Numbered from the stretch's first letter, positions 2,747 through 15,196 are shown. The stretch is 15,803 bases of DNA from Candidatus Margulisiibacteriota bacterium (GCA_034723395.1 JAYEOW010000022.1:1-15803); one strand, 5' to 3'. Numbers and translations: made by a program. Notes: generated by a model from the sequence alone, not told the origin.

Positions 2747-2773
2747 GAAATTTTTAATGATTGTGAACGACAA
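2747..2773 (+). promoter_or_regulatory. sigma28-like promoter of the dGTPase-like gene
   Basis: GAAATTTT-N11-AACGACAA. ATG 5 nt downstream with no SD. Confidence 0.55.
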
Positions 2774-2778
2774 ACAAA

Positions 2779-4062
2779 ATGAGAGCTATGAAAATACATT
2801 GTTATTCCAGGAGTGTAAACAGAGCGCTGGCGCTAAGAGGCAAAACCCGCCTGCTCCGACGCCATGGAATAGCTTTTCCTGCTTCCGGAGTTATAGATCG
2901 TGGGATCATTGAAACTCGCGAACAGATAATGCTTTCCCCTTATGCCGCTCTCAGCTCACAATCCAGGGGTCAAGCCAGGCTTGCGACTGAGGGGTTAGCC
3001 GGCATCGGATCAGTTTTCGAACGCGACCGCTCTAAAATACTCTCTTCATTATTTTTCAGGCGGCTGTCGGGCAAAGCACAGATATTAATTGCTCCTTCCC
3101 AAGAACATGTTACCACGCGACTTTTCCATACTACAAGCGTTACTCAAATCGCCAGGGCTATCGGCCGGACCCTGGGTTTAAACGAAGATTTAATAGAAGC
3201 AATTGCTCTTGGCCATGATCTGGGCCACACCCCATTTGGTCACGCCGGGGAAAGAGCATTAGACAAAATCTCCATGAAAAACCTAAAGACTAATTTTAGG
3301 CACAATCGGCTAAGCCAGTTTATTGCAGATGAGATATTACATTTAAGCTTTGAAGCACAGGATGGGATATTGCGCCACAGCGGAAAGCTCCAGCTTGTTA
3401 ACGCACCTTCCAAAAACGCTGGAACAGGCCTTACAGATGAAAAAATAAATGCCACAACCCTGGAAGGCGTCGTCGTTAAAATTGCGGACAAATTGGCCTC
3501 AGCAGCGCAAGACCTGGCAGATTTGAAAAGTGCGGCAATTTTCAGTGTAAATCTCATGCAAAGAGATGATGGAAATGAGAATCCAACGCATAGAACCCTG
3601 CTTCAACCGATAACAAACATTTTTGGGGAAAACATAGGGAACTGGTACAAAATCCTTATTAATGATGTTATTGAAAACAGTAAAGGAAAAAGGGCTCTTT
3701 GCTTCAGCAAGCCTGTATTTGAAGGGCTTCAAAATTTGATGGCCCTCAACAAAGGAATTATCATCGGCGAATATAAAGGCATTTCTTTTGATGGGGTCAG
3801 TTCGGAGGATGCTAAAGTAGGCGCCATCGTTGACGCACTCCACAGACACTATACCAGGAAATATCTGGATGGTACATTGAGCCCTGGAAATTATTATTTT
3901 AGAGAAAAATGGCAGATAGCAATGACCGCTGAGGAACTGGACAAAACCTACGATCAAGCAGCGATCCATCGGATAGCAGGCATGACCGACAGGATGGCGA
4001 TTGAAGAATATTTAAAACTGCCTGGTTCCGATCCAAAACAGGTCCCTAAATCACCATTGTAA
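2779..4062 (+). CDS. dgt: Divergent dGTP triphosphohydrolase-family HD hydrolase with N-terminal extension
   Basis: FERDRSKIL..FRRLSGKAQI, TRLFH, LNEDLIEAIALGHDLGHTPFGHAGE, TLEGVVVKIAD, IAGMTD motifs. Symbol denotes family only. Confidence 0.85.
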   Translation: MRAMKIHCYSRSVNRALALRGKTRLLRRHGIAFPASGVIDRGIIETREQIMLSPYAALSSQSRGQARLATEGLAGIGSVFERDRSKILSSLFFRRLSGKAQILIAPSQEHVTTRLFHTTSVTQIARAIGRTLGLNEDLIEAIALGHDLGHTPFGHAGERALDKISMKNLKTNFRHNRLSQFIADEILHLSFEAQDGILRHSGKLQLVNAPSKNAGTGLTDEKINATTLEGVVVKIADKLASAAQDLADLKSAAIFSVNLMQRDDGNENPTHRTLLQPITNIFGENIGNWYKILINDVIENSKGKRALCFSKPVFEGLQNLMALNKGIIIGEYKGISFDGVSSEDAKVGAIVDALHRHYTRKYLDGTLSPGNYYFREKWQIAMTAEELDKTYDQAAIHRIAGMTDRMAIEEYLKLPGSDPKQVPKSPL

Positions 4063-4189
4063 TCACAAATCAAAAGTGGTTCTTAAAAAAGTGGGGGGAA
4101 TTATCTGGTTTCGGCCCAGGTAAGATAAAGATCATAAGCCGCCCGATCGACCACTTTTACATAAACCGCTTTCGTTCTCAAAAAATCTT

Positions 4190-4549
4190 TTAAGGCTTGG
4201 AAGCTTCCCTTCTCCGCCAGACCACATTGAATTTATCGCGCTCAACAAAATACCACTCTTCCCCACCGTTCCTTTCATCAATTACTTTATAAAATTCCAG
4301 GTTCTCAGCAGGTATCCCCCGCGAAATTAATACTCCACGCATCGTCTTATCTTCCCCGCGGTCTAATTCTCGTCTCTCCCCCCTAATACCCTTATTCGGA
4401 TCAACCACATATAACATATCTGCCGCGCGGTGCCGGCAGCATCCACCCTCTTCCTGGAAAAATCCAAGGGACAACAACATCCCTTTTTTCCCGTGCCCCT
4501 GCAGATTAGAATAATTTTCATCCAGCATGTCGGCAATTTTTAGCGCCAA
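4190..4549 (-). CDS. Hypothetical protein, possibly the frameshifted C-terminal part of 4579-5151
   Basis: 119-aa ORF with protein-like composition but a TTG start with poor SD. Its frame stays open upstream across the stop of 4579-5151. Confidence 0.45.
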   Translation of the reverse strand: MALKIADMLDENYSNLQGHGKKGMLLSLGFFQEEGGCCRHRAADMLYVVDPNKGIRGERRELDRGEDKTMRGVLISRGIPAENLEFYKVIDERNGGEEWYFVERDKFNVVWRRREASKP

Positions 4550-4578
4550 ACTTTTTTCTTCCCCGGAATGCTTGCCCT

Positions 4579-5151
4579 CTATTTCTCGAGCTCCCTGCCG
4601 TAAGTTTCGGTTTTCCCAAGAACAAATTCATGCCCGGGTAAAATGTCACCGTCTTGTAATCTTTCCGCATTCGGAAGTTCGAAATAATTGATGATATTTA
4701 TATCCTCGGCGGCCACCCGCGCCATCTCGATGGAAATTTGGGAATCCCGCATAGTCTCTCTAATGCCCGCCCTAACGACCTCCGGAGGCGGAGGTTCAAC
4801 CGGACGGCTCGGGGAAGCGGAAGATGCTTCTTCCGCTTTAAGCCTGACCTCAAATGCATCATTGTTTTTAATGATTATAATTCCATAAAGCTCATTACTG
4901 CCAGAAGAAATCCTCGCCCCTCTCATCATGGGGTACCTTCCTGAAAATTCGACCGGCACAACATGAATACTGTGTCGGCCCTGACAATCTTTAAATATGG
5001 AATATTTATATCCACCGGCTAAAAATTCAACTTGATTGCTCTTGGCCGCGAAGTGATAAGTATTCCCTGGATTTAAAACGTAAGGCTTTCGCCGAGGCGA
5101 TAAATAAATATTATTTAATCCGAGATTTGGGATTGGTGTTCTTGGACTCAT
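4579..5151 (-). CDS. Hypothetical protein with basic N-terminus and Ser/Pro linker
   Basis: 190-aa ORF, SD AAGGAGG at 5170-5164. No family recognised. Confidence 0.7.
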   Translation of the reverse strand: MSPRTPIPNLGLNNIYLSPRRKPYVLNPGNTYHFAAKSNQVEFLAGGYKYSIFKDCQGRHSIHVVPVEFSGRYPMMRGARISSGSNELYGIIIIKNNDAFEVRLKAEEASSASPSRPVEPPPPEVVRAGIRETMRDSQISIEMARVAAEDINIINYFELPNAERLQDGDILPGHEFVLGKTETYGRELEK

Positions 5152-5226
5152 TTGCGCTCAGATCCTCCTTAGGGATTCACTGTTAAAAAATGGCAATAAT
5201 TTCACTATTTAACCATAAAATAAAGT

Positions 5227-5253
5227 GAAATTTCATCAAATATACTACGATAT
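5227..5253 (+). promoter_or_regulatory. sigma28-like promoter of 5260-5913
   Basis: GAAATTTC-N11-TACGATAT. ATG 6 nt downstream with no SD. Confidence 0.65.
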
Positions 5254-5259
5254 TAATAT

Positions 5260-5913
5260 ATGAAATTACCAAGGCTGGCCAAACTAGGAGGATGCTACAG
5301 CCCTTACCTCACCAAGGGACGCTTCCGCGTAAGAGAAAAATTCATCCGCATCTATCAACATGAAAACCGCCATGTCCGCTCAAGACTGGTTGCCTGCACG
5401 CCCAAAGCATGGAAAATAATAAAAAACGACAAGGATATCTTAAGGAAATTGCGCGGGAATATAGGCGCTCATAATGATGGAAGAATAAATAAGGCAACCA
5501 TAATCGCCCTGAACAATAAAGGAATTTATATTGATTTTTTATCAAGAAGCAACAAAGGTCTATTTGCTTTGTGCCTGATGGAAGAAAAAGACTCAGAAAT
5601 ATTTTTAGATTGTTTCAAAGAGCTGGAAGAACCGACAAACAGGAATCTTCGGATCTTTGAAAAAACTTCTACTTTAAAATTAAACTTCCAAGACCTCACC
5701 GTGCGTCAACGGAAACAATTACTGGGATTCTTAGCTGATCAAAAGGTAAAACTTGAACAAATACAACAAGTTTTATTGGTTGACGGAGCCGAAATCGAAA
5801 TATTACCTTCGATCAACGGGAAATTGACCATAGCCTTCGGGAGAAATTGTCTTTACGCCGACACCGGATTCATAAACTGGGTCCCTCAAGAATATAAGCC
5901 AATATTATTTTAG
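5260..5913 (+). CDS. Hypothetical protein
   Basis: 217-aa ORF filling the gap. 3' end overlaps the convergent giant ORF by 9 nt. No family recognised. Confidence 0.7.
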   Translation: MKLPRLAKLGGCYSPYLTKGRFRVREKFIRIYQHENRHVRSRLVACTPKAWKIIKNDKDILRKLRGNIGAHNDGRINKATIIALNNKGIYIDFLSRSNKGLFALCLMEEKDSEIFLDCFKELEEPTNRNLRIFEKTSTLKLNFQDLTVRQRKQLLGFLADQKVKLEQIQQVLLVDGAEIEILPSINGKLTIAFGRNCLYADTGFINWVPQEYKPILF

Positions 5914-8900
5914 CCGGTAGGCATAACCATAGTTGACTTTAGCCTGGTTACTTACTGCCACAAGACCGTGAACCCTAGGACCCCTCCCCTGCTCTCCCGC
6001 ATTTTTTACTTTTAAATAATCAGCATAGAACTCCTGCGCGCCGCTTACCCAGCTCCCTTTCGGTTTCTTGGCGATGACAACCGCTACCCTTACCTCTTTA
6101 TAATTTCCGTCCAACATCCGCCCTTCGTAGACCCCTTCTTTTATCTTCCTTCCGGTCAAAGTAACCTGCCCAATCTTTTCACCTTTTCCATGAAGAACAT
6201 TCCATGCTTCTTTAGGGGCCCCTATATGCTTCAAGCTTTGGATCGGGCCCTTTATTCCAACCCCAGTCCCCCCATTACCACTATGCCTTCCCGCTTCAGG
6301 AACGCGATGACCTACTCCATTACTATTATGGAACTCAGTCATACGCATAATTAGTTGAGCTTTAAACCCGGCATCAATTATATAGGCTTTCTGTTTTCCT
6401 TTCGGACCAATAACTAATATAAACTTACTAGCGTTTTGGCCAGGCAGAACAGTAACTTCACCTTTTCTATAATGGTTTTTAAAACTCTTTAACACCTCGC
6501 CTTCCTGCCCAGGCTTAAGTATTACCGCTGTGCCAACTTTTCTCTGATCTGCTCTTCCCGCTGGTTCGGTAATATGCCTTCCTGCGGCTGGAGTAGAAAT
6601 AGGCCTTGGCATACTCCCGATAACATCACCCATCCTGCTCATAAATTCTCCGCGTTGATGGGCGGAAACCCGATATACAATTCGATGATTGTTCTTAAAT
6701 ATAGTGATCCTGTAATGCGTGATCAGTCCGCCGTTGGGAAGAGTTTCCGGTCGAACCTGATGATTGCCATTCAATGAGGCTTTCCTCAATGTTCCACTGT
6801 CAAATACCTGGCCAAAAACCTTTGAATCGCTCCAACCCGAAATATCCAGAGGTTTTTTGTTTGTATTTCTGACTATGCCTTGGATAGAATTCTTCGTATT
6901 CATGGAGACTTTATACTGATACTGTATAGATCTTCCCTTAACATTGTATATAAAAATATAATATTGACCTTTATTGCCGGGAACCGGGGTAAATTTTATC
7001 CGATCGGACTGCGCAAGCTTTACGACGCCTCCTTCCCTTCCAAGGGCAAATAAAACTTCTTTGGTTCTAAGGCCCGAATAATCCCGTTTTTGGACCCTGG
7101 GAACAGCAAGTTTTCCCACTCCACCACTACGATCCGGGCCGCCAGCCAATCTTTTTGCTGAAGGCATACCTTCTCCTGAATCGATTACCGTCTCCTTGGT
7201 AACAAATCTATGCCGTGAAGGGGCTGAAGGAGTTGCTAGAGGAGGCGTTACCCCTCGGTTAGAAATTCCTGGCTCTGCTATAACTGCCCTGCTATCCGGC
7301 TCAGCAACACGTCTTCCAACTCCCGGGATTTCTCCTGAATTCTTATGGATATCAAATTTAATGTTAATTATATATCGCCTAAATAGCCCTCTTACCCCTT
7401 TCGGAATTCTGTATACCTGACCATTTATTGAAACATTGCTCGCGTTCAAAACAAAGACCCCCCCCCGCTTAGTGTGACGATCAACCCTGGTTTTTATGTC
7501 GATAACTTGCTTTAGCAGCGCCAAAGCTTGTTTATTAACGTAAGTATAATAAATCTTGGCAGCCCCACCCTCGGTAGTTCTGGCCTCAACCCTGTAATAA
7601 TCCGAATCGCCCAACCTTACGATCTTCGTCTGATCCGCTCCCCAAACAAGTTTTTGGATGAATATACCAAGTTTCTTTACCCCCAAAGTCTGAGTTTTTG
7701 CCCTATTTTCGGCGGTAAATTTCCCAACCTTTGTGACCTCAGGGCTCCTTACGCTCCCGATCTGTCCTCTCTGATCATAAGCAAACCTCCAGAAAGAACC
7801 TAACCCGACCATTCGTTTAATCGTATCAGCAAGGGATAACGGCTTAAAATGCATCGGCTTATTAACATTGCTGAATATCTGATAACCATTTCCAGCTTTG
7901 CGGATCTGCCAATGGCTGCCCTTGTAATTCACAATCCTTACTTTTATTTGGCCATTACGGGCCTTTGAAACAACTAAGATATCTGCGGTCGCAATATTTT
8001 TTCTTTTACAAAGAGCTAAAGTTTGGGTTATAACATCCGAGGTCAGTTCAACCCCTCGGCTATATACGTATTTAATGCCCAGCGATTTTTTCAGCGCGCT
8101 ATTTTCATCCAATGTGATAACTTTTGCCGGCGTCCTCACAAATCTGGCAAGCCGCGCCATAAAAGTGGAAGAAGGCCCAACATTGATCCCGGCTTCCCTT
8201 AATTGCGATTCGGTCGTTACGGCCTCTGCCGCTAATCTCTTTATACGTCGGTTAAAACGTAGAATTGCTCTATAAGTACTTCCTGGAAGAACGTCTTTTC
8301 TTCTTAAGTTAAGAACGGATCTCTCATATCTATTACTCAACTTGGCAATCTTTTTAAGGAGGTGGACTCTTTGCCCAAATGTTTCCGCCGCGGTGCCTAA
8401 CTTCTGAAGTTTTTCATACAAAGCATTTATCCTCACCTGATATCCCTTTGCAACACCATATAGACGCCTGGTCCTTAAATCCCTTATCCTTGCGCCAACT
8501 TTCAACCTTGCATTACGCAGTGATTTTGCCCCTCTTTTTGCCGCACCACCGGCCAATCCCATTGCGATCGAAAACTGAAGTGCGCTGCCAAACTGGCCTT
8601 TTATATTTTTATAACTAAATATTTGTGAAAGCGATTGATTACTATCCATTACCTGTTTAAAGATCCCCCAAACCGTGAAGAACCCGGTATCAACTACTCC
8701 AAGCCTTAAAAGATTTTTTGAGAACGAAAGCGGTTTCGCCACTAATTGCCCGGCCGTGTTTCTGGCTAATCCGTCTAACTTCAGTTTTCTCAATAATTTA
8801 CCATGGGCATAAAACATTGCCGTGCTCCAGATGGCCGACTTGAAAAAGCCTTCTTTATGTTTTACCCCCATTATCCTGGATTCAAGCTGGCGGTTTATCC

Positions 8901-11640
8901 CGGTAAAGGCAAAACCCCTTGCGACATGGACCGATCCGCGGGCAACAACTGAAGCGATCCTCCAAAACCGGGTTGCGGTTTGGGCCGCCTTTGCCGTACT
9001 GTAAGCGCTGGCAAGCTCAAACGGCAGGGTAAACAACTTAGCTACGCCGAGAGAGACCGCCAAAAGGGCGATGCTTGTAAAAATATTTTCCCATTTATCG
9101 ATAAACCCTGCCGTACCGTAAGCCGCCTTAACGAAATTATTAGTCGGGCGGAAATATTTTTTAACTAATCCATGGAATTGCGAATCACTTAAACCACCAA
9201 GCTCTCCTGGAATTCTTACTTTAGTATTGCTATAAGATAAAGTAAGTGATTGTCCGCTCCTTATCGCCCGGGTGAAACCCTTTAAATTGCCCAGATTCTT
9301 ACGCGCTGCACTATCCAGTCCGCTTGCATCAGAAAATCGGGAATTTCTCAGAAATTTTACTCCGGCGTTCCACTGTGCATTATTGGCATGTTTCACCAGC
9401 ACGCGCATCTGAGCCGACATTACAATAAGCTGAATTCTTCTTTGGATATCTTTCTTTAAAGCGAGGGTCCCGCTTGACCCTGTTCTCCCTTTTGAGGCTA
9501 ACGCGTATAATTTTTTCAAGCTTGCATTAATAGCCGGGATCTTATCAAATCCCCCCTTAAAAGCTGCTCTCAATAACCCCCTCACGCGGCTCTCTAGTTT
9601 CGGAGGAAGTTTTGCGCACACTCGAGATATAACGGTATTAACAAATCCTCCATTCTGTAATCGCTCTGCCCAGCGATAAGTCTCCGCGATCCCCTGTAAT
9701 CGGGACAATGCGGCAGTAAACCTTTTCGCTTCACCCCTTGAAACCTGTTCACCTCTTGCCATTTTTTTGCTGATATCTAGAACAAATCGCTCATCTGAAG
9801 ATCGATCCACCCTGATCCCCATTGCCTGAAGGCCCGCTCTGGACCGGCGATAATCCGCTACAACCATAAGCTGTGAAGTGCGAACTGCAAAGCGCATAAA
9901 CTCGCCATATTTAAAGACCCCTCTCCCGTAAGCTCTGGTTAAAAGAGCCGTTTTATTCCTTCTAAATATTCTTGCCGAACGAGCCAAACCTAGTTTTCCA
10001 CCACTGTTATTGTCCCATTTAATCAACTGGTCCAACCGGTCTGATGCGTATGCATCATGTATTTTTGTTTTTGGATCCCGCTTTCTCAGCAAACCGGTAC
10101 TTAATTCCATGTAAGGGAGACCAAGGCCTCTTACAAATTTGCTAACAGACCCATCGCCCGGCTTTAAATGTATCAGCCCAAATCTCAGCCCCCCGATCGC
10201 CCGGGATATTACCTTATATTTGTTTTGTATTTTTGTGGTAATAGAACGGGAGGTAATCATCTCTTTTATCAGATAATTTGTTTGGCGGACCAGGCTTCGA
10301 TAAGATAGCTCTAATGCCTTAAATCCCACAGGTAATTTTAAATTTGCAAGGGATTTCCTGTCTTTTAAGGCCTGAGCAACTAAACCAAGTTTTTGAACGC
10401 CTCTTCGTAAGACAACCCCGTTTTTTTCATATTTAACCGCAACCCCTTCCAACCCCCTGCTCCATCTTAAAAATTTGGCACCTGATCGTTTTATTCCCGA
10501 TAAGGAAGCCTGTAACTTCACATATTCAGCCATGATATTCTTTCTTAAACGGGGCGTAATCCGGTAAGACACATTACTTAAACAAACGTCTATCTCTCCC
10601 AAGACCCTCTGCGCACTGCCTGCTTCAATAACATAACGCATATACATCGAGATCCGGTCACGGATCCGGCCGCCTTTGACATAATATTTTAACGCGGCGG
10701 CAATATTACCTCTCTGGACCGCCCGTTTTGCCTTAGCCAGATAAGCCCCTCCCAAGCTGAACAACCTGCTGACTTTCCGGCTATTAAACTCACGGCTTAC
10801 TTGTCCGCGCGTATTATTCATCTGGATCCCAAACTGCTTATATTCTCTCGATTCTCCGTAAACTTCCCTGCGGACCAAAGATTTATATCTGGCTTCAACC
10901 TTTCTTCTTTCGGCTACAATTTGACCAACTAATTTTTTAGCTGTCGCCCTATCGGCTTTTGCAGCCTGGGCAGCAAATCCACGAATGCGCTTTAACGCCC
11001 TCGCCGCAAACCATCGAAACCGCCTTAAGGAACTCGATCCACTCGGATTATTAGAAAGGAATATGCTCAGGTTTTTTTCAAATTGGCCAAATACCCTGCC
11101 GGCTTCCCGCGGACTTAAGATAATTGAGGCCTTTAGATAGCTCAACGCTTCATGACGGGTAATTTGCTTCTTGCCGCTGGTAGGGCCGGTTGAACGGGCT
11201 GCAGGCAGACTGGTAGTTTCAGGAATTCTAACCTCGACAAAAGAGGCTAAAGCTTTTAGTCCATTATAAAGGACATTTGATAACAGGAAAGCAGTCGAAT
11301 ACGACTCAGGGTTCTTAATAAAACCGGCGGTTTTCAAAGCAGCAATAGTCCGTTTTGTGATTTGTAGCTTCGGCCGGCTGCGATCGTCGTTATCCCTTAA
11401 GATCTTTACAAACTGTTCTCTCTTTTTTCTTGCTTCAGCAGTTTTTCCTGTAGGAATGTTAAAAACCAGATCTCTGGCGGGGGTTTTAAGCTTTTGAGCT
11501 AAGGAGAGTATCTGATCATCCTGTTTAGAGTCAGTTATAAGGCGGGTTATTCCAGTATCTGCCCCTCCCAGCCTTGCTAAATCATTACTTTTAGGCTGTG
11601 GAGGCTGATTTCCAAATATATTGTTGGTTTCTAATGGCAC
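5905..11640 (-). CDS. Giant (1911 aa) highly basic protein with toxin/effector-like architecture
   Basis: Uninterrupted 5.7-kb ORF, GTG start with SD AGGAGG. Helical N-half, central hydrophobic/Gly-Ala helices, C-terminal repeated beta modules. No signal peptide. Confidence 0.85.
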   Translation of the reverse strand: MPLETNNIFGNQPPQPKSNDLARLGGADTGITRLITDSKQDDQILSLAQKLKTPARDLVFNIPTGKTAEARKKREQFVKILRDNDDRSRPKLQITKRTIAALKTAGFIKNPESYSTAFLLSNVLYNGLKALASFVEVRIPETTSLPAARSTGPTSGKKQITRHEALSYLKASIILSPREAGRVFGQFEKNLSIFLSNNPSGSSSLRRFRWFAARALKRIRGFAAQAAKADRATAKKLVGQIVAERRKVEARYKSLVRREVYGESREYKQFGIQMNNTRGQVSREFNSRKVSRLFSLGGAYLAKAKRAVQRGNIAAALKYYVKGGRIRDRISMYMRYVIEAGSAQRVLGEIDVCLSNVSYRITPRLRKNIMAEYVKLQASLSGIKRSGAKFLRWSRGLEGVAVKYEKNGVVLRRGVQKLGLVAQALKDRKSLANLKLPVGFKALELSYRSLVRQTNYLIKEMITSRSITTKIQNKYKVISRAIGGLRFGLIHLKPGDGSVSKFVRGLGLPYMELSTGLLRKRDPKTKIHDAYASDRLDQLIKWDNNSGGKLGLARSARIFRRNKTALLTRAYGRGVFKYGEFMRFAVRTSQLMVVADYRRSRAGLQAMGIRVDRSSDERFVLDISKKMARGEQVSRGEAKRFTAALSRLQGIAETYRWAERLQNGGFVNTVISRVCAKLPPKLESRVRGLLRAAFKGGFDKIPAINASLKKLYALASKGRTGSSGTLALKKDIQRRIQLIVMSAQMRVLVKHANNAQWNAGVKFLRNSRFSDASGLDSAARKNLGNLKGFTRAIRSGQSLTLSYSNTKVRIPGELGGLSDSQFHGLVKKYFRPTNNFVKAAYGTAGFIDKWENIFTSIALLAVSLGVAKLFTLPFELASAYSTAKAAQTATRFWRIASVVARGSVHVARGFAFTGINRQLESRIMGVKHKEGFFKSAIWSTAMFYAHGKLLRKLKLDGLARNTAGQLVAKPLSFSKNLLRLGVVDTGFFTVWGIFKQVMDSNQSLSQIFSYKNIKGQFGSALQFSIAMGLAGGAAKRGAKSLRNARLKVGARIRDLRTRRLYGVAKGYQVRINALYEKLQKLGTAAETFGQRVHLLKKIAKLSNRYERSVLNLRRKDVLPGSTYRAILRFNRRIKRLAAEAVTTESQLREAGINVGPSSTFMARLARFVRTPAKVITLDENSALKKSLGIKYVYSRGVELTSDVITQTLALCKRKNIATADILVVSKARNGQIKVRIVNYKGSHWQIRKAGNGYQIFSNVNKPMHFKPLSLADTIKRMVGLGSFWRFAYDQRGQIGSVRSPEVTKVGKFTAENRAKTQTLGVKKLGIFIQKLVWGADQTKIVRLGDSDYYRVEARTTEGGAAKIYYTYVNKQALALLKQVIDIKTRVDRHTKRGGVFVLNASNVSINGQVYRIPKGVRGLFRRYIINIKFDIHKNSGEIPGVGRRVAEPDSRAVIAEPGISNRGVTPPLATPSAPSRHRFVTKETVIDSGEGMPSAKRLAGGPDRSGGVGKLAVPRVQKRDYSGLRTKEVLFALGREGGVVKLAQSDRIKFTPVPGNKGQYYIFIYNVKGRSIQYQYKVSMNTKNSIQGIVRNTNKKPLDISGWSDSKVFGQVFDSGTLRKASLNGNHQVRPETLPNGGLITHYRITIFKNNHRIVYRVSAHQRGEFMSRMGDVIGSMPRPISTPAAGRHITEPAGRADQRKVGTAVILKPGQEGEVLKSFKNHYRKGEVTVLPGQNASKFILVIGPKGKQKAYIIDAGFKAQLIMRMTEFHNSNGVGHRVPEAGRHSGNGGTGVGIKGPIQSLKHIGAPKEAWNVLHGKGEKIGQVTLTGRKIKEGVYEGRMLDGNYKEVRVAVVIAKKPKGSWVSGAQEFYADYLKVKNAGEQGRGPRVHGLVAVSNQAKVNYGYAYRLK

Positions 11641-11675
11641 TCTCTTGTTCCTCCTGGGGAATCTTCTAAAAACTC

Positions 11676-11730
11676 AAAAAGCGAACCATCTACAGTTCGC
11701 TCATTTTGCAGATGGCTTCGTGTCTCTCAC
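11676..11730 (-). promoter_or_regulatory. Attenuator-like leader (terminator hairpin, competing stem, short uORF)
   Basis: AGCGAAC-TGTAGATG-GTTCGCT followed by TTTT. Competing arm CGAAGCCATCTGCA pairs with TGTAGATGGTTCG. uORF GTG..TGA at 11730-11701. Confidence 0.5.
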
Positions 11731-11735
11731 TAGTA

Positions 11736-11762
11736 TTATCGTAATATAATGTAGAAAACTTG
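11736..11762 (-). promoter_or_regulatory. sigma28-like promoter of the giant gene
   Basis: Minus strand CAAGTTTT-N11-TACGATAA. Confidence 0.6.
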
Positions 11763-11784
11763 CATCATTCTCGCATCATTGAAA

Positions 11785-11861
11785 AGCTCGAATACCCGAA
11801 TTATGCTGCTCGAATTCCCTAATACTAGTGAATTCGGATTCCTCATTCGGGCTTTCGAGTT
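11785..11861. repeat. Long imperfect inverted repeat built of CGAA/TTCG units
   Basis: Nested pairs CTCGAA/TTCGAG, CCCGAAT/ATTCGGG, CGAATTC/GAATTCG. Confidence 0.7.
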
Positions 11862-11913
11862 ATATATGTTCGAGAGGGTTAAATTTTGACATTTTTATGC
11901 CAAAAACATTGCT

Positions 11914-11940
11914 GAAATTTCCGACCGATTCTATCGATAA
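11914..11940 (+). promoter_or_regulatory. sigma28-like promoter of 11967-12611
   Basis: GAAATTTC-N11-ATCGATAA. Confidence 0.7.
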
Positions 11941-11966
11941 TATATTGGTGAGAAAAGGAGACCAAA

Positions 11967-12611
11967 TTGAAACTAATACAATTCCGCATTAATCCCAATC
12001 CAAGCTGCTTCAACCGCCGGCTGGAAAACTGCCCGCCGCGGGGCTATTGCAAGACCATGCGTAAAAAGCCTGCCACCTGGCAATGTTTTAAATCTTATCC
12101 CCACCGTTTTAAAGTGCGGCTGCTCGGCAACAGCAATAATCCGGAGATGCTCCGGGCCAATCCGGAACTTATTGAAAGGTTTTCCGACGCGGTCCTGAAG
12201 AACTTTGAAGCGCGCACCGAAACGCTGACGATCGAAATCCAGGCTTCACTCCTCGCCTCGCCGCGCAATTTTAATCTCGTCCTCAAGGGCCTGGCCAATA
12301 ACCGGGACGATCATTACAACGGCATGCTGCCTATCGCAGATAAAGCATTTAGCCATTTCCCTAATCGCGAAGTTTCCCGCGAAATGACCGTGAGATTCCG
12401 GATGCGGGAACAAGATGAAGTATCCATGGATATCACCAGAAGAACATTCGACGGTATCGTCGAAAGAGTGACCGGATTTATTATCGAGAGTCCGGATAAA
12501 TCACGGATCGGGACGATTCCAAGAGTATCAATGGAAGCAAAAAAAGACATCGCCGGCGCCACTTCCGCCGTTTTGCAAAGAATGGTCGAGCTGGGGATGA
12601 TACCTAAGTAG
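11967..12611 (+). CDS. Hypothetical protein with basic N-terminus
   Basis: 214-aa ORF, TTG start 6 nt after SD AAGGAG. No family recognised. Confidence 0.75.
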   Translation: MKLIQFRINPNPSCFNRRLENCPPRGYCKTMRKKPATWQCFKSYPHRFKVRLLGNSNNPEMLRANPELIERFSDAVLKNFEARTETLTIEIQASLLASPRNFNLVLKGLANNRDDHYNGMLPIADKAFSHFPNREVSREMTVRFRMREQDEVSMDITRRTFDGIVERVTGFIIESPDKSRIGTIPRVSMEAKKDIAGATSAVLQRMVELGMIPK

Positions 12612-12621
12612 GCTGAAGAAA

Positions 12622-12713
12622 CGGGAGCGACGGGATTCTCCCGACTCACAGTCGGGATCCCGATGATTCCATAATCACATATTATAATGACCATCGGGAG
12701 AACCCTCGATCTC
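12622..12713 (-). pseudogene. tRNA 3' fragment (possibly tRNA-Asp), att-like, interrupted in the T-loop
   Basis: Removing 12639-12699 gives GAGATCGAGGGTTCGAATCCCGTCGCTCCCG: variable loop, T-arm (one stem mismatch), acceptor 3' strand and G discriminator. No D or anticodon arm is visible upstream. Confidence 0.7.
12639..12699. repeat. TCCCG...CGGGA double-hairpin palindromic element, copy 2 (61 bp)
   Basis: TCCCGACT-cac-AGTCGGGA followed by TCCCGATG-attccataatcaCATATTATAATGac-CATCGGGA, inserted at TTC^GAA. Confidence 0.75.
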
Positions 12714-12734
12714 AGACTAGTTTGGGTTAGTTTC

Positions 12735-12770
12735 ATTGTTAGAAAATTGTTAGAAGATTTTTAGAAGATT
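12735..12770. repeat. Three tandem 11-bp repeats ATT(G/T)TTAGAA(A/G), candidate integrase arm sites
   Basis: ATTGTTAGAAA, ATTGTTAGAAG, ATTTTTAGAAG, then ATT, about 20 nt from the tRNA fragment. Confidence 0.6.
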
Positions 12771-12779
12771 AAAACTTAA

Positions 12780-13580
12780 CTATTTAAAAGGATTATAATC
12801 TGGATGTTCCACCAAATATTGTTTTAAGAATAAAAAAGCCTCTTGGTTAAATCTTCTTTCACGCACTTTACCAGAAACGGTCCTAAGAGTATAACAGTAA
12901 TCTTTATTATCCGATATCTTCAACTTCTTCAAAGCCTGATAGACGAAGCCTCCGTTTTTCCCTAACTCTTCAGCAATTTTTTCTGTCCGATACGAAAACC
13001 TCAGAAGCTTATCAACCTCTTCTGTTTTCACAACTACAGGCATCCCCCGACCTCTCTTCATAATCTTCACGGGTGGGATTTCTTCCATTTTCATCTCTCT
13101 ATTTATTGGAAATTTAGCGACCAGATTAATCCTCTTCATAAACTCGTCCAATTTCTCAGCCCACATTCTGTCGTAATCATCTTTGGTAGCTAAATTATTC
13201 TCTGAAGAATGCCTAACCCAAACTTGCCCCTCATAAAATTCGGCTTTTTGTTGTGGGGGCGGAGAAGGATTTTCATACATACCTGGCTTGCGAAATATAT
13301 GGGGTTTAGATACCGAATTGGGGACGTATATTATAATTTTTTTATCATTTACAGAACTGATATTTTGAATCCTAGGTCCAATATAGCTGTTCACTTTGTC
13401 GTCGATTTTTGCGGAATCAAATTCTTTAGGGGATATCCTGCCAATATTGAACAATCGGATTTCTCCCCCATTTGTATTTGCCAAAGCAACGATCGTTCTA
13501 ATTATCCTTAGCCATTCTTTTGCACTTCCCGCAAACTTTGATTTATATTCAACTTTTTCGCTTTCAACAATTTTCTTCAT
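12780..13580 (-). CDS. Schlafen/AlbA_2 domain protein with C-terminal HTH-like domain
   Basis: ESEKVEYKS...IVALANTNGGEI, IYVPNSVSKPH, GQVWVRHSSENNLAT match AlbA_2. C-terminal YRTEKIAEELG...LKISDNKDYCY...RRFNQEAFLFL resembles a wHTH of the EC042_2821/DUF3644 type. Confidence 0.8.
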   Translation of the reverse strand: MKKIVESEKVEYKSKFAGSAKEWLRIIRTIVALANTNGGEIRLFNIGRISPKEFDSAKIDDKVNSYIGPRIQNISSVNDKKIIIYVPNSVSKPHIFRKPGMYENPSPPPQQKAEFYEGQVWVRHSSENNLATKDDYDRMWAEKLDEFMKRINLVAKFPINREMKMEEIPPVKIMKRGRGMPVVVKTEEVDKLLRFSYRTEKIAEELGKNGGFVYQALKKLKISDNKDYCYTLRTVSGKVRERRFNQEAFLFLKQYLVEHPDYNPFK

Positions 13581-13637
13581 AAATATACCTAAAAGATTAG
13601 GGTTTCACCCAGCTGCAACTAGTTCGTATATGTTACT

Positions 13638-14156
13638 TCAATTATTTAATTTAATGTAATACTTAAAATACTGAGGGATATCGTCCAGATACTTAACATC
13701 CACTTGAATCTTCTCAAAGGGCCGCAGTTTTGCCTTGATGGCTCTCAAATCTCTCTTCTTTTGGTATTTTCTCTTCCTCTTGCCTATCAGCCCATGATCT
13801 TTAAGTACGCGATAGATAGTGCAGGTAGAATATGGCAGCTTGAGCGAAGCCTTAATTGCCCAGCAGGAAATCCGGTTTTTACGCCTTTTTCTCAGTTCAA
13901 CGATCCTTTCCTCATCAGCCTTCGGAAGCTTTCTTGGTTGTTTCGGTCTCTTTGACTCATCCAGCAAACCATCCAGCCCCTTGCTCAAATACCTCCTATG
14001 CCATTTCCTGACCGTTACTACCGAAGCCATATATTCCCTGGCAGTTGGCTTAATCCCTATCTCCTTTACCCTTTGTACCATTTTTAACCTCCATCCATAT
14101 TTATTTGCTGATAGCCTAAGGTTCTCATAATATGTTATGCTTATTATAGGGATCAC
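13638..14156 (-). pseudogene. IS481-like transposase, C-terminally truncated
   Basis: HTH motifs GIKPTAREY..TVRKWHRRY..GLDGLLDESKRPK, EERIVELRK, TIYRVLKDHGL. The ORF stops just after the first catalytic Asp (IQVDVKYL), and no DDE continuation lies before the next gene. Confidence 0.85.
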
Positions 14157-14345
14157 TCCTTTCTTGTGTTGTTGCTAACATCATTATAAGGGTGGTCCCC
14201 AACCTTAAAAAGGCCCGATTTCATGTTTTTTGTGATTTTTTTGATATAGCCACTCCGAAACCACCTCCCCAATCCAAACACCCCTTTACCGTCGAGAAAC
14301 CCTATTTCTGCCAATTCCAGGGGTATACCATGTTCCAGATCATTT
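13638..14345 (-). mobile_element. Truncated IS481-like insertion sequence remnant
   Basis: Contains the transposase fragment and its RBS-sequestering hairpin. The boundary near 14345 is a guess because no matching second IR was found. Confidence 0.55.
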
Positions 14346-14366
14346 CTAAAAATTTTGGGATTTCGT

Positions 14367-14393
14367 GAAATTTCTTGTAAAAAGTGTCGATAT
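14367..14393 (+). promoter_or_regulatory. sigma28-like promoter of 14534-15196
   Basis: GAAATTTC-N11-GTCGATAT. Confidence 0.7.
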
Positions 14394-14533
14394 AAATATA
14401 GTGGGAGATGAACCTCTCACAAAAACCAGATGCTCCTCGACAAGCTCGGAGCAAGCCCAACGAGGCTTGCAAGGTCGATATCTGGAAGAAGAAAAAAAAG
14501 AAAAGTTAATAAAAATTAAGGAGGATGATATAA

Positions 14534-15196
14534 ATGGCATTATTTGGAACAAGAGCCGTGCCAAAAACAATTATAAGTCGGAGAAACGCTTTAACTGTCT
14601 CGGGAAATAGCCGTTTTGCCAGAATTGCCAATCTTACCGGTACGGAGGTTCTTTTGAAGGTGGAAAAGGCGGCGGGTCGTTTGGCAAGAAAGGCCATAGA
14701 TTGGTTTAATTTTGGGGGGCCGCAACCAGGATATGCGTTTGCAGGTACAGAAGGAGCGGCTTTTCTTGGAGGAATCGAAAGGATTGACGCAGATGCCACC
14801 ATTAGCAGAATGGCCAATAATTCGGAAGGGACAAAGGTTGGTGGAAAAATAATCGGCAGTGGTAATGCAGTAAGGGGACAAGAGGCCTTGAAGCCAGATA
14901 GAGAAGAAAGTGTGGACGCTTTTCTTGAAAAAATGCGTATATTTGAGAAAGAAGCTGATAGAAGCTTCAAAATAGGAATGTTCGGAAGAAATATAGGGCT
15001 TTCCATGATAGGCGTTGGAGCGGTGCTTGCCGCTGGGTCAGCGTTTTTTTCGGGATCGGCCTTGGGCATCGGTGCATCGGTTTTATTGTACGGTGGATCA
15101 GCTTTGTTTGCTGGTGGAGTAGTTTTGCTTTGTATTGCTTTGACCTGGTCACAAATCCTGCTTATGAAAGCTATGAATAAAAAAGATAGGCAATGA
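14534..15196 (+). CDS. Hypothetical membrane protein with C-terminal bilobed hydrophobic domain
   Basis: SD AAGGAGG plus ATG. About 50-residue charge-free Gly/Ala-rich hydrophobic stretch near the C-terminus. Confidence 0.8.
   Translation: MALFGTRAVPKTIISRRNALTVSGNSRFARIANLTGTEVLLKVEKAAGRLARKAIDWFNFGGPQPGYAFAGTEGAAFLGGIERIDADATISRMANNSEGTKVGGKIIGSGNAVRGQEALKPDREESVDAFLEKMRIFEKEADRSFKIGMFGRNIGLSMIGVGAVLAAGSAFFSGSALGIGASVLLYGGSALFAGGVVLLCIALTWSQILLMKAMNKKDRQ

Follow-up and report, generated by a model that had tools for sequence, protein, structure and literature searches.

Five promoter-like sites and their genes in the window

The stretch of DNA analysed here (hereafter the window, 15,803 nucleotides; GCA_034723395.1, JAYEOW010000022.1) is the entire contig C22 of a Candidatus Margulisiibacteriota bacterium whose 1.68 Mb genome is 97% complete and belongs to Saganbacteria/WOR-1. 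It carries five copies of a bipartite, sigma-28-like promoter element, and we describe these together with the regulon that the same element marks in the rest of the genome and in related genomes. The relatives, retrieved via the sigma gene of this genome, carry the labels Saganbacteria, WOR-1 or Margulisiibacteriota. All five 27-mers that a first-pass annotation of the window had listed were confirmed at their coordinates and strands, each of them intergenic and facing an open reading frame, and 0.01 matches per shuffle are expected by chance in the window for this pattern, which had been fitted to the five sites.

The five sites had been regarded as one shared motif. Their bipartite structure with an 11-nt spacer was retained, but they fall into two subtypes, designated class G (four sites) and class C (one site). 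Scored with a matrix trained on 85 sites outside the contig, the class G promoters, all on the plus strand, lie at 2747..2773 (13.5 bits, with a -10 box CGACAA, an in-frame ATG 5 nt on at 2779 and the next ATG 14 nt on at 2788), 5227..5253 (29.3 bits, with an ATG 6 nt past the -10 box, which would give a leaderless message), 11914..11940 (25.4 bits, with a palindromic -35 box) and 14367..14393 (29.9 bits, with the ATG 140 nt away), and the class C promoter lies on the minus strand at 11736..11762 (22.7 bits, with a GTG start 95 nt away). Two weaker sites on the reverse strand had been overlooked: a degenerate class G site at 5177..5203 (5.0 bits), with a good -35 box and a poor -10 box, which stands back to back with the 5227 promoter and may be inactive, and a site at 11895-11921 (9.3 bits) made by the palindromic -35 box of the 11914 promoter. 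No site of at least 3 bits was present before the housekeeping operon, the Schlafen gene or the insertion sequence of the window, in agreement with the initial description.

The gene behind the 2747 promoter (2779..4062, +) had been counted among the orphans and is instead a second copy of a dGTPase-like HD protein. Aligned with the housekeeping copy on contig C29, whose residue 1 falls opposite its residue 38, it has an Arg-rich N-terminal extension of about 35 residues; the HD metal motif is kept, and DKLAS stands in place of the DRIAY of the housekeeping copy, which shares the pattern D-x-I-A-Y with four aligned outside homologues. Both the extension and the DKLAS change are common to six close homologues of the window protein, and the tyrosine lost with this change is a substrate-selecting residue. 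The other three class G promoters face a basic protein of 217 residues (5260..5913, +) with an Arg-rich, acid-poor N-terminus, a basic protein of 214 residues (11967..12611, +) with a TTG start after a GGAG site and 184 residues from the next ATG, and a protein of 220 residues (14534..15196, +) with an Arg-rich N-terminus and three Gly-rich hydrophobic segments at residues 153-212. None of the three has a Pfam family; the first two are candidate cargo of the exporter described below, and the third is a candidate for cargo that inserts into membranes. A 190-residue protein (4579..5151, -), also without a Pfam family and with a cargo-like N-terminus, is a possible sixth target. The class C promoter precedes a very basic protein of 1911 residues (5905..11640, -; isoelectric point 10.9) with a Pro/Asn/Gln-rich N-terminus and one hydrophobic segment near residue 852. 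This giant matched only itself among 7985 candidates and no protein in 40 relatives (0/40), and its residues 1540-1911 had no Atlas match.

The motif behaves as a sigma-28-type promoter of two classes throughout the genome

Across the genome, a loose two-box pattern gave 86 hits at a spacing of 11 nt and 2-12 hits at each of 13 other spacings. A matrix built on the five window sites only found 61 hits of at least 16 bits off this contig, of which 52 were intergenic, 48 had the next gene on the same strand and 1 on the opposite one; with a matrix trained without this contig, 91 hits reached at least 20 bits, 86 of them intergenic, with 81 facing a same-strand gene and 1 an opposite one. The reversed genome gave 5 hits against 117 at a threshold of 13.5 bits and none against 91 at 20 bits. 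The motif is therefore well above background and strongly biased to the same strand, two of the properties that the first-pass annotation had asked to see checked. Because hits so outnumber those of the reversed genome at the 13.5-bit level, the 2747 site, although the weakest of the five, is probably real. The motif also extends beyond this genome, since one exact pattern occurred 5-104 times per genome in 41 of 41 genomes of the taxonomic class, against 0-2 times for the backward control.

The sigma-28-type geometry first proposed was borne out, with two boxes, a fixed 11-nt spacer and CGATA in the -10 box, and we consider the motif to be a real promoter of this type. Sites of at least 18 bits divide into class G, TGAAATTT-N11-xxCGATAW (n = 74), and class C, with GCAAGTTTT and CGATA in the same position (n = 20). 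The class G box GAAATTT is nearly fixed (GAAAT in 98-100% of the 74 sites), CAAGTTT is found in 100% of the 20 class C sites, and both promoter classes are present in all families seen. The -35 consensus of sigma-28 is TAAAG(TTT), from which TGAAATTT and GCAAGTTTT both depart as variants. An ATG follows 6-9 nt after many class G sites; the distance is exactly 6 nt in 9 of 30 sites of the relative G040 and in 0 of 30 of G031. Such leaderless-type starts are clear in G040, mixed in this genome and absent in G031, which suggests that class G messages are leaderless in some lineages.

Class G targets share an N-terminal signature

The regulon comprises about 100 genes and 7.5% of the genome by coding length, and about 75-90 of these genes are scattered, fast-turnover class G genes. 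We selected 108 targets and scanned the 85 that lay in fetched loci, which leaves out 17 that were not fetched, the five window genes and rpoD. No Pfam family was found for 56 of the 85 targets, compared with 10 of 66 motif-less first genes of the same loci (p = 3.5e-10). The proposed enrichment before orphan genes is thus present, and the description of the targets as orphans applies to roughly two thirds of them, the remainder including rpoD and spare copies of enzymes. Targets with families comprise PGK, PFK, two PPDK-domain proteins, PGM, a GlgC-like enzyme, an amino-acid kinase and HD proteins, as well as two RelA/SpoT proteins, two sigma-70 proteins, three histidine-kinase-domain proteins, CheR, a Ser/Thr kinase, PP2C and an ADP-ribosylglycohydrolase; GH16, GH116, GH77, TPR and HEAT proteins are also among them.

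For 22 of the 108 targets a paralogue exists, and the paralogues have neither the motif nor an N-terminal addition. In alignment, the PGK, PFK, PPDK, PGM, GlgC-like, dGTPase and RelA/SpoT targets begin 8-65 residues before the motif-less paralogue (about 900 for PPDK). Additionally, after proteins with Sec-like signals had been removed from both sets, the first 30 residues of class G proteins (n = 48) were richer in Arg (0.109 vs 0.049) and poorer in Asp+Glu (0.060 vs 0.123) than those of other first-in-unit proteins (n = 309; p ~1e-9), with the bias confined to the N-termini and the protein bodies ordinary in composition. A shortage of acidic residues at the N-terminus is also seen in two other families (p = 7e-4 and 4.5e-6, each against its own protein bodies); the tests used 22 proteins from 30 of 47 sites and 29 proteins from 30 of 50 sites. 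The idea of effector-like targets is supported in this part by the N-terminal signature of class G; with their composition bias and N-terminal additions, these proteins may carry an uncleaved type III signal that would drive their export. The arginines are not a Tat signal of the cell's own, as no TatC was found, and hidden weak motifs before other Arg-rich genes were rejected as unsupported (p = 0.37).

Target turnover between families is almost total: among 53 targets of relatives, only rpoD is a clear orthologue of a target listed here, and a sigma-54 activator is a class G target shared by both relatives. At rpoD (G000:C29:79465-80564) the class G site lies 17 nt upstream and is also found in G031; through it, a sigma factor might restart housekeeping transcription.

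Class C sites precede the export genes of a motorless machine

Two flagellar-type operons are present in this genome. The first is arranged as flgF-G-A-H-I-(J-like)-sigma1-flgB-C-fliE-F-G(154 aa)-H-I-J and the second contains a fliK-like gene, a 271-residue rod/hook gene and fliM-N-O-P-Q-R-flhB-flhA, so that the flagellar-type export set (flhA, flhB, fliP, Q, R, I, H and F) is found together with the rod genes flgB, flgC and fliE and the L- and P-ring genes. The 154-residue FliG is half-size, and only its N and M domains were matched. Flagellin is missing from this genome and was matched in 1 of 53 genomes of the class, the stator domain MotA_N was found in 0 of 41, and the sole MotA_ExbB match sits in a TonB-ExbB-ExbD locus. 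The single Flagellin_N match among the 53 genomes (G019:C4:62270-62632; E 6e-16, in a 253-residue frame) may be a relic, an FlgL-like protein or contamination.

Judged by its genes, this machine is not a motile flagellum, as it is without flagellin, stator and full-length FliG. Four flagellated members of the phylum have two flhA copies each, and the FlhA of this genome shares 62-65% identity with their second copy, against 41-44% with the remaining one (unrooted tree, 10 sequences), the second copy adjoining a homologue of the sigma 2 gene described below in three of the four. We therefore regard the genome as carrying a separate, motorless machine and not a decayed flagellum. The retention of flgB, flgC and fliE also places this machine outside the injectisome family, and its FlhA model score (770.8) exceeds that of SctV (661).

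In 28 of 30 genomes a class C site stands before the fliK-flgE-like-fliMNOPQR-flhB-flhA operon, and class C marks a second fliK/flhB-like pair as well; the regulon is thus not the non-flagellar one that it was first taken for. Nor is it one that controls flagellin and late motility genes: flagellin and MotA are missing, and class C precedes export and hook-length genes. Class C sites also precede lineage-specific giants, such as the 1911-residue protein of the window, and a syntenic cluster of uncharacterised proteins. The N-termini of class C products are Pro/Asn/Gln-rich (0.245 vs 0.110, p = 5e-8, 14 proteins).

The cluster comprises a protein of 1300-2600 residues with hydrophobic stretches, two tandem families of 70-140 residues, a 699-residue protein and often a TPR glycosyltransferase, a layout which suggests that it encodes outer parts of the machine. 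Its 128-residue marker gene has a strong match in 35 of 53 genomes of the class, and a profile of the 699-residue gene has matches in 51 of 131 phylum genomes, 23 of which had built the profile. The two small tandem families (29 and 27 sequences, picked by position) are weakly alike (hhalign 59%, E 9e-5), and one of them was modelled as a helix, a beta hairpin and a helix (pLDDT 54); in one genome (L115:4097-4681) the small family A gene is duplicated in tandem. A likeness of the small class C proteins to type III needle subunits, noted by eye, found no support in Pfam, PDB profiles or the Atlas, nor in a fold search with the low-confidence model, which returned generic hairpins only (best Z 5.8). 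The giant of the cluster has eight mildly hydrophobic segments and coiled-coil matches only. The 699-residue protein (G000:C16:15984-18083, -, L011) was modelled with a pLDDT of 80 and a pTM of 0.78, and its N- and C-terminal helices align together in fold matches; searched whole, the model had no Foldseek hit at E 0.001 and a best Z of 5.9, on its coiled coil, and the protein is possibly a new fold.

Two FliA-like sigma factors suggest a two-step cascade

Among the sigma factors of this genome are RpoD, an ECF-type sigma, the product of a sigma-54-like gene (recognised by eye), two FliA-like sigmas and two more sigma-70-family proteins that are themselves class G targets. FliA-like sigma 1 has 246 residues and sigma 2 has 196, with only regions 2 and 4 detected in the latter. 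FliA_WhiG was the top NCBIfam match of both, with scores of 135.6 and 75.1 that lie far below the curated cut-off of 189.6. The FliA-family factor expected at first thus has two FliA-like candidates, and with two promoter classes a single variant sigma-28 factor is doubtful.

A strict sigma-70 consensus lies before flgF in this genome and in 8 of 15 rows of relatives. Sigma 2 is present in 122 of 131 phylum genomes, and coordinates were read from 22 genomes with both genes on one contig, in 16 of which it follows fliK on the same strand at a distance of 8-10 kb. From gene position, the simplest order appears to be sigma-70, sigma 1, class C, sigma 2 and class G: sigma-70 would make sigma 1, whose gene lies in the rod/ring/ATPase operon behind a sigma-70-type promoter; sigma 1 would read class C, so that the export gate and the outer structure are built; and sigma 2, in most relatives at the end of the class C export-gate operon, would then read class G. 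No FlgM was found among the cluster proteins scanned, no genome-wide search for FlgM having been made.

Control of the machine by sigma-54 was rejected, as the sigma-54 consensus was not found before either flagellar operon. The sigma-54-like gene lies with two response regulators and a 111-residue gene (G000:C29:52849-57278 and C46:1377-1712); the latter resembles by eye the 111-residue gene before sigma 2, and a class G site inside the sigma-54-like gene faces a 462-residue activator. An identical 17-mer that fits the sigma-54 consensus occurs nine times, mostly near contig ends or position 101 (C4, C10, C16, C18, C24, C27, C39), and is probably a repeat or an insertion-sequence end.

Other features of the window

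On the minus strand, the window carries an operon of a DUF134 helix-turn-helix protein, a DUF5320-like protein, a small open reading frame, a pyruvoyl arginine decarboxylase and YibE/F (156-2615), and a Schlafen AlbA_2 protein (266 residues) that adjoins an IS481-like transposase fragment (12780-14156, no motif upstream); a transposase start like that of this fragment is also found on C7. Short palindromic stretches at 14420-14470, between the 14367 promoter and its gene, and at 12620-12670, after the 214-residue gene, resemble dispersed repeats. An Rfam scan of the window gave no match.

Discussion

Taken together, our best reading is a two-step sigma cascade that would build a motorless type III exporter and then express its cargo. 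We hold it to be somewhat more probable than otherwise that the sites act as promoters in a two-tier regulon of sigma-28 type serving this flagellum-derived exporter, whatever the recipient. Most class G products would be exported through the machine by their N-terminal signal, for which a housekeeping enzyme that gained a type III signal offers a precedent (PMC9251005), and the four class G genes and the class C giant of the window would be cargo or accessory parts. An effector or host-interaction programme, as the first-pass annotation had imagined, is plausible. In the weakest step of the proposal, another cell would receive the cargo. We consider a bacterium more probable than a eukaryote as the recipient, because sigma, RelA/SpoT, kinase and CheR cargo would fit a bacterial cytoplasm and ankyrin genes are few. 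The fullest version of this proposal, which we hold to be less likely than not, is a second injector that would have evolved independently by conversion of a flagellar basal body. It would possess needle, tip and pore proteins of its own and a two-sigma cascade, would be found in Saganbacteria and probably other Margulisbacteria, and would supply a bacterial host with about 80 proteins, among them modified sigma factors and glycolytic enzymes, alarmone synthetases and a dGTPase.

Several observations weigh against the export regulon and its wiring. Concerning the cascade, the sigma-70 pattern before flgF was not matched in 7 of 15 rows; sigma 2 lies 19-28 kb downstream of fliK in 4 of the 22 genomes, including this one, and elsewhere in 2; in this genome it is 19 kb from flhA with no site of at least 8 bits; and part of the regulon might be read by the two additional sigma-70-family factors whose own genes carry class G sites. 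As for the cargo, rpoD (in two genomes) and the sigma-54 activator (in two or three) are class G targets that act inside their own cell, Sec-like signals occur in 6 of 67 targets of class G and in 3 of 17 of class C, the Arg excess lacks significance in G031 (p = 0.14) and reaches it only in the other of the two further families, motif-less genes with Arg-rich N-termini have no better hidden motifs, and start codons come from a gene caller made for this analysis. Tests on the cluster proteins identified no needle, tip, translocon or chaperone. Finally, the promoter-like behaviour, the orphan excess, the N-terminal signature, the two classes, the link between class C and the export operon and the motorless machine were computed directly, whereas secretion, start sites, sigma binding and assignment, the identity of the needle and the host are what we infer from sequence.

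Two alternatives concern the promoter itself. One sigma factor, sigma 2, might read both classes, with the difference between C and G tuned by an activator or by promoter strength and with no cascade, a possibility that bears on the wiring only and that we consider unlikely. The CGATA box and its spacing are common to both classes and sigma 2 is the more widely conserved factor, its gene then being autoregulated via the class C site; against this, the -35 boxes are sharply distinct in all families seen, two FliA-like genes are kept and target types differ between the classes. It is very improbable that the motif is an operator or a copied repeat. Near-identical spacers do occur in 6 pairs against 0.9 expected (one pair is a duplicated contig end), an excess so slight that we rejected promoter copying between genes, and such an origin sits badly with two boxes at a fixed spacing around a free spacer, with the strict orientation and the ATG often 6-9 nt downstream, and with a motif kept class-wide before unrelated targets.

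The principal rival is a life-stage regulon, a global programme that the FliA-like sigmas would run for a dispersal, dormant or restart stage, comparable to the attack phase of Bdellovibrio; the spare enzymes, sigma factors, RelA/SpoT proteins and kinases would then act within the producing cell, with few targets using the exporter. Only rpoD and the sigma-54 activator are clearly shared class G targets between families, and many targets are metabolic or regulatory, as such a stage would have it. A precedent exists in Bdellovibrio bacteriovorus, where a FliA-type promoter TTAAG-N16-CCGATA marks 92 of 140 stage-specific, attack-phase promoters, many of them non-flagellar (PMC3627812). This rival, to which we give a rather low probability, leaves unexplained the N-terminal additions and composition, the near-complete turnover of targets and the class C site on the export operon. 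We judge improbable a third possibility, in which the same export regulon serves a eukaryotic recipient, such as an anaerobic protist or the vacuole or organelles within it. The Arg-rich, acid-poor N-termini, which may resemble mitochondrial presequences, would in that case also mimic organelle-targeting signals, and the sugar enzymes would parallel the secreted glycogen enzymes of Chlamydia. The PGM, GlgC-like, PGK, PFK, GH16, GH116, GH77, Ser/Thr kinase, PP2C, TPR and HEAT targets would suit such a recipient, one member of the phylum is intracellular in Trichoplax (10.1101/568287) and the phosphoglucomutase of Chlamydia is a type III substrate (PMC9251005). On the other hand, sigma-70 copies, RelA/SpoT, histidine kinases, CheR, ADP-ribosylglycohydrolase and dGTPase would be better suited to a bacterial cytoplasm, and ankyrin repeats were found in 8 of 41 genomes only, with 1-6 matches each. 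An ATP/ADP translocase was found in 0 of 41 genomes, which is uninformative as the control genomes were likewise without a match.

The exporter regulon that we favour can be compared with several known systems. With the late flagellar regulon of sigma-28 (FliA/SigD/WhiG) it shares the CGATA -10 box, the spacing and sigma genes in flagellar-type operons; it differs in sigmas below the cut-off, two -35 variants, the lack of flagellin and stator and about 100 mostly non-flagellar targets. HrpL of Pseudomonas syringae is not known to be FliA-like. Its regulon is similar in that a type III machine shares one alternative sigma with scattered effector and non-effector genes that vary between strains, but it serves a true injectisome (PMC3879358), whereas the machine here keeps flagellar rod and L/P-ring genes and its secretion is predicted. 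Class C has the same AAG-to-CGATA distance as the Bdellovibrio promoter; Bdellovibrio, however, swims with a full flagellum, in contrast to a motorless machine with two sigmas, two promoter classes and a shared N-terminal signature (PMC3627812). Buchnera is also non-motile and keeps basal body and export genes with proposed secretion, including that of SyeA (PMC13468123, PMC8109811, PMC3459982), but has 8 predicted substrates among 569 proteins. In the present system, about 100 genes are under common control, new proteins form a cluster found across the class, and relatives retain the machine alongside a true flagellum. Non-flagellar type III secretion systems (PMC3459982) have in common with this machine the core export genes, the lack of a motor, candidate cargo with N-terminal signals and two small helical-hairpin proteins clustered with hydrophobic giants. 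They differ from it, since flgB, flgC, fliE, flgH and flgI, which serve as markers of flagella (PMC3459982), are present here and SctF, tip or translocon matches are not, and the machine would be an independent reuse of a flagellum.

Saganbacteria are known from genomes only. The main text of the principal Saganbacteria paper makes no mention of secretion, motility, pili or sigma factors, and titles and the beginnings of abstracts yielded no published description of such a system, although flagellar genes may be listed in the supplements of PMC6349859. Through the promoter, about 100 genes are linked to one machine, which gives a testable list of parts and cargo. Injectisomes are held to have arisen once (PMC3459982), and export, if true, would make this a second route from the flagellum to protein delivery. 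If in addition the recipient is bacterial, it would be a case of type III delivery between bacteria. To our knowledge there is no established case of this. Should the injector reading be true, the promoter would be a ready tag for cataloguing effectors across the class.

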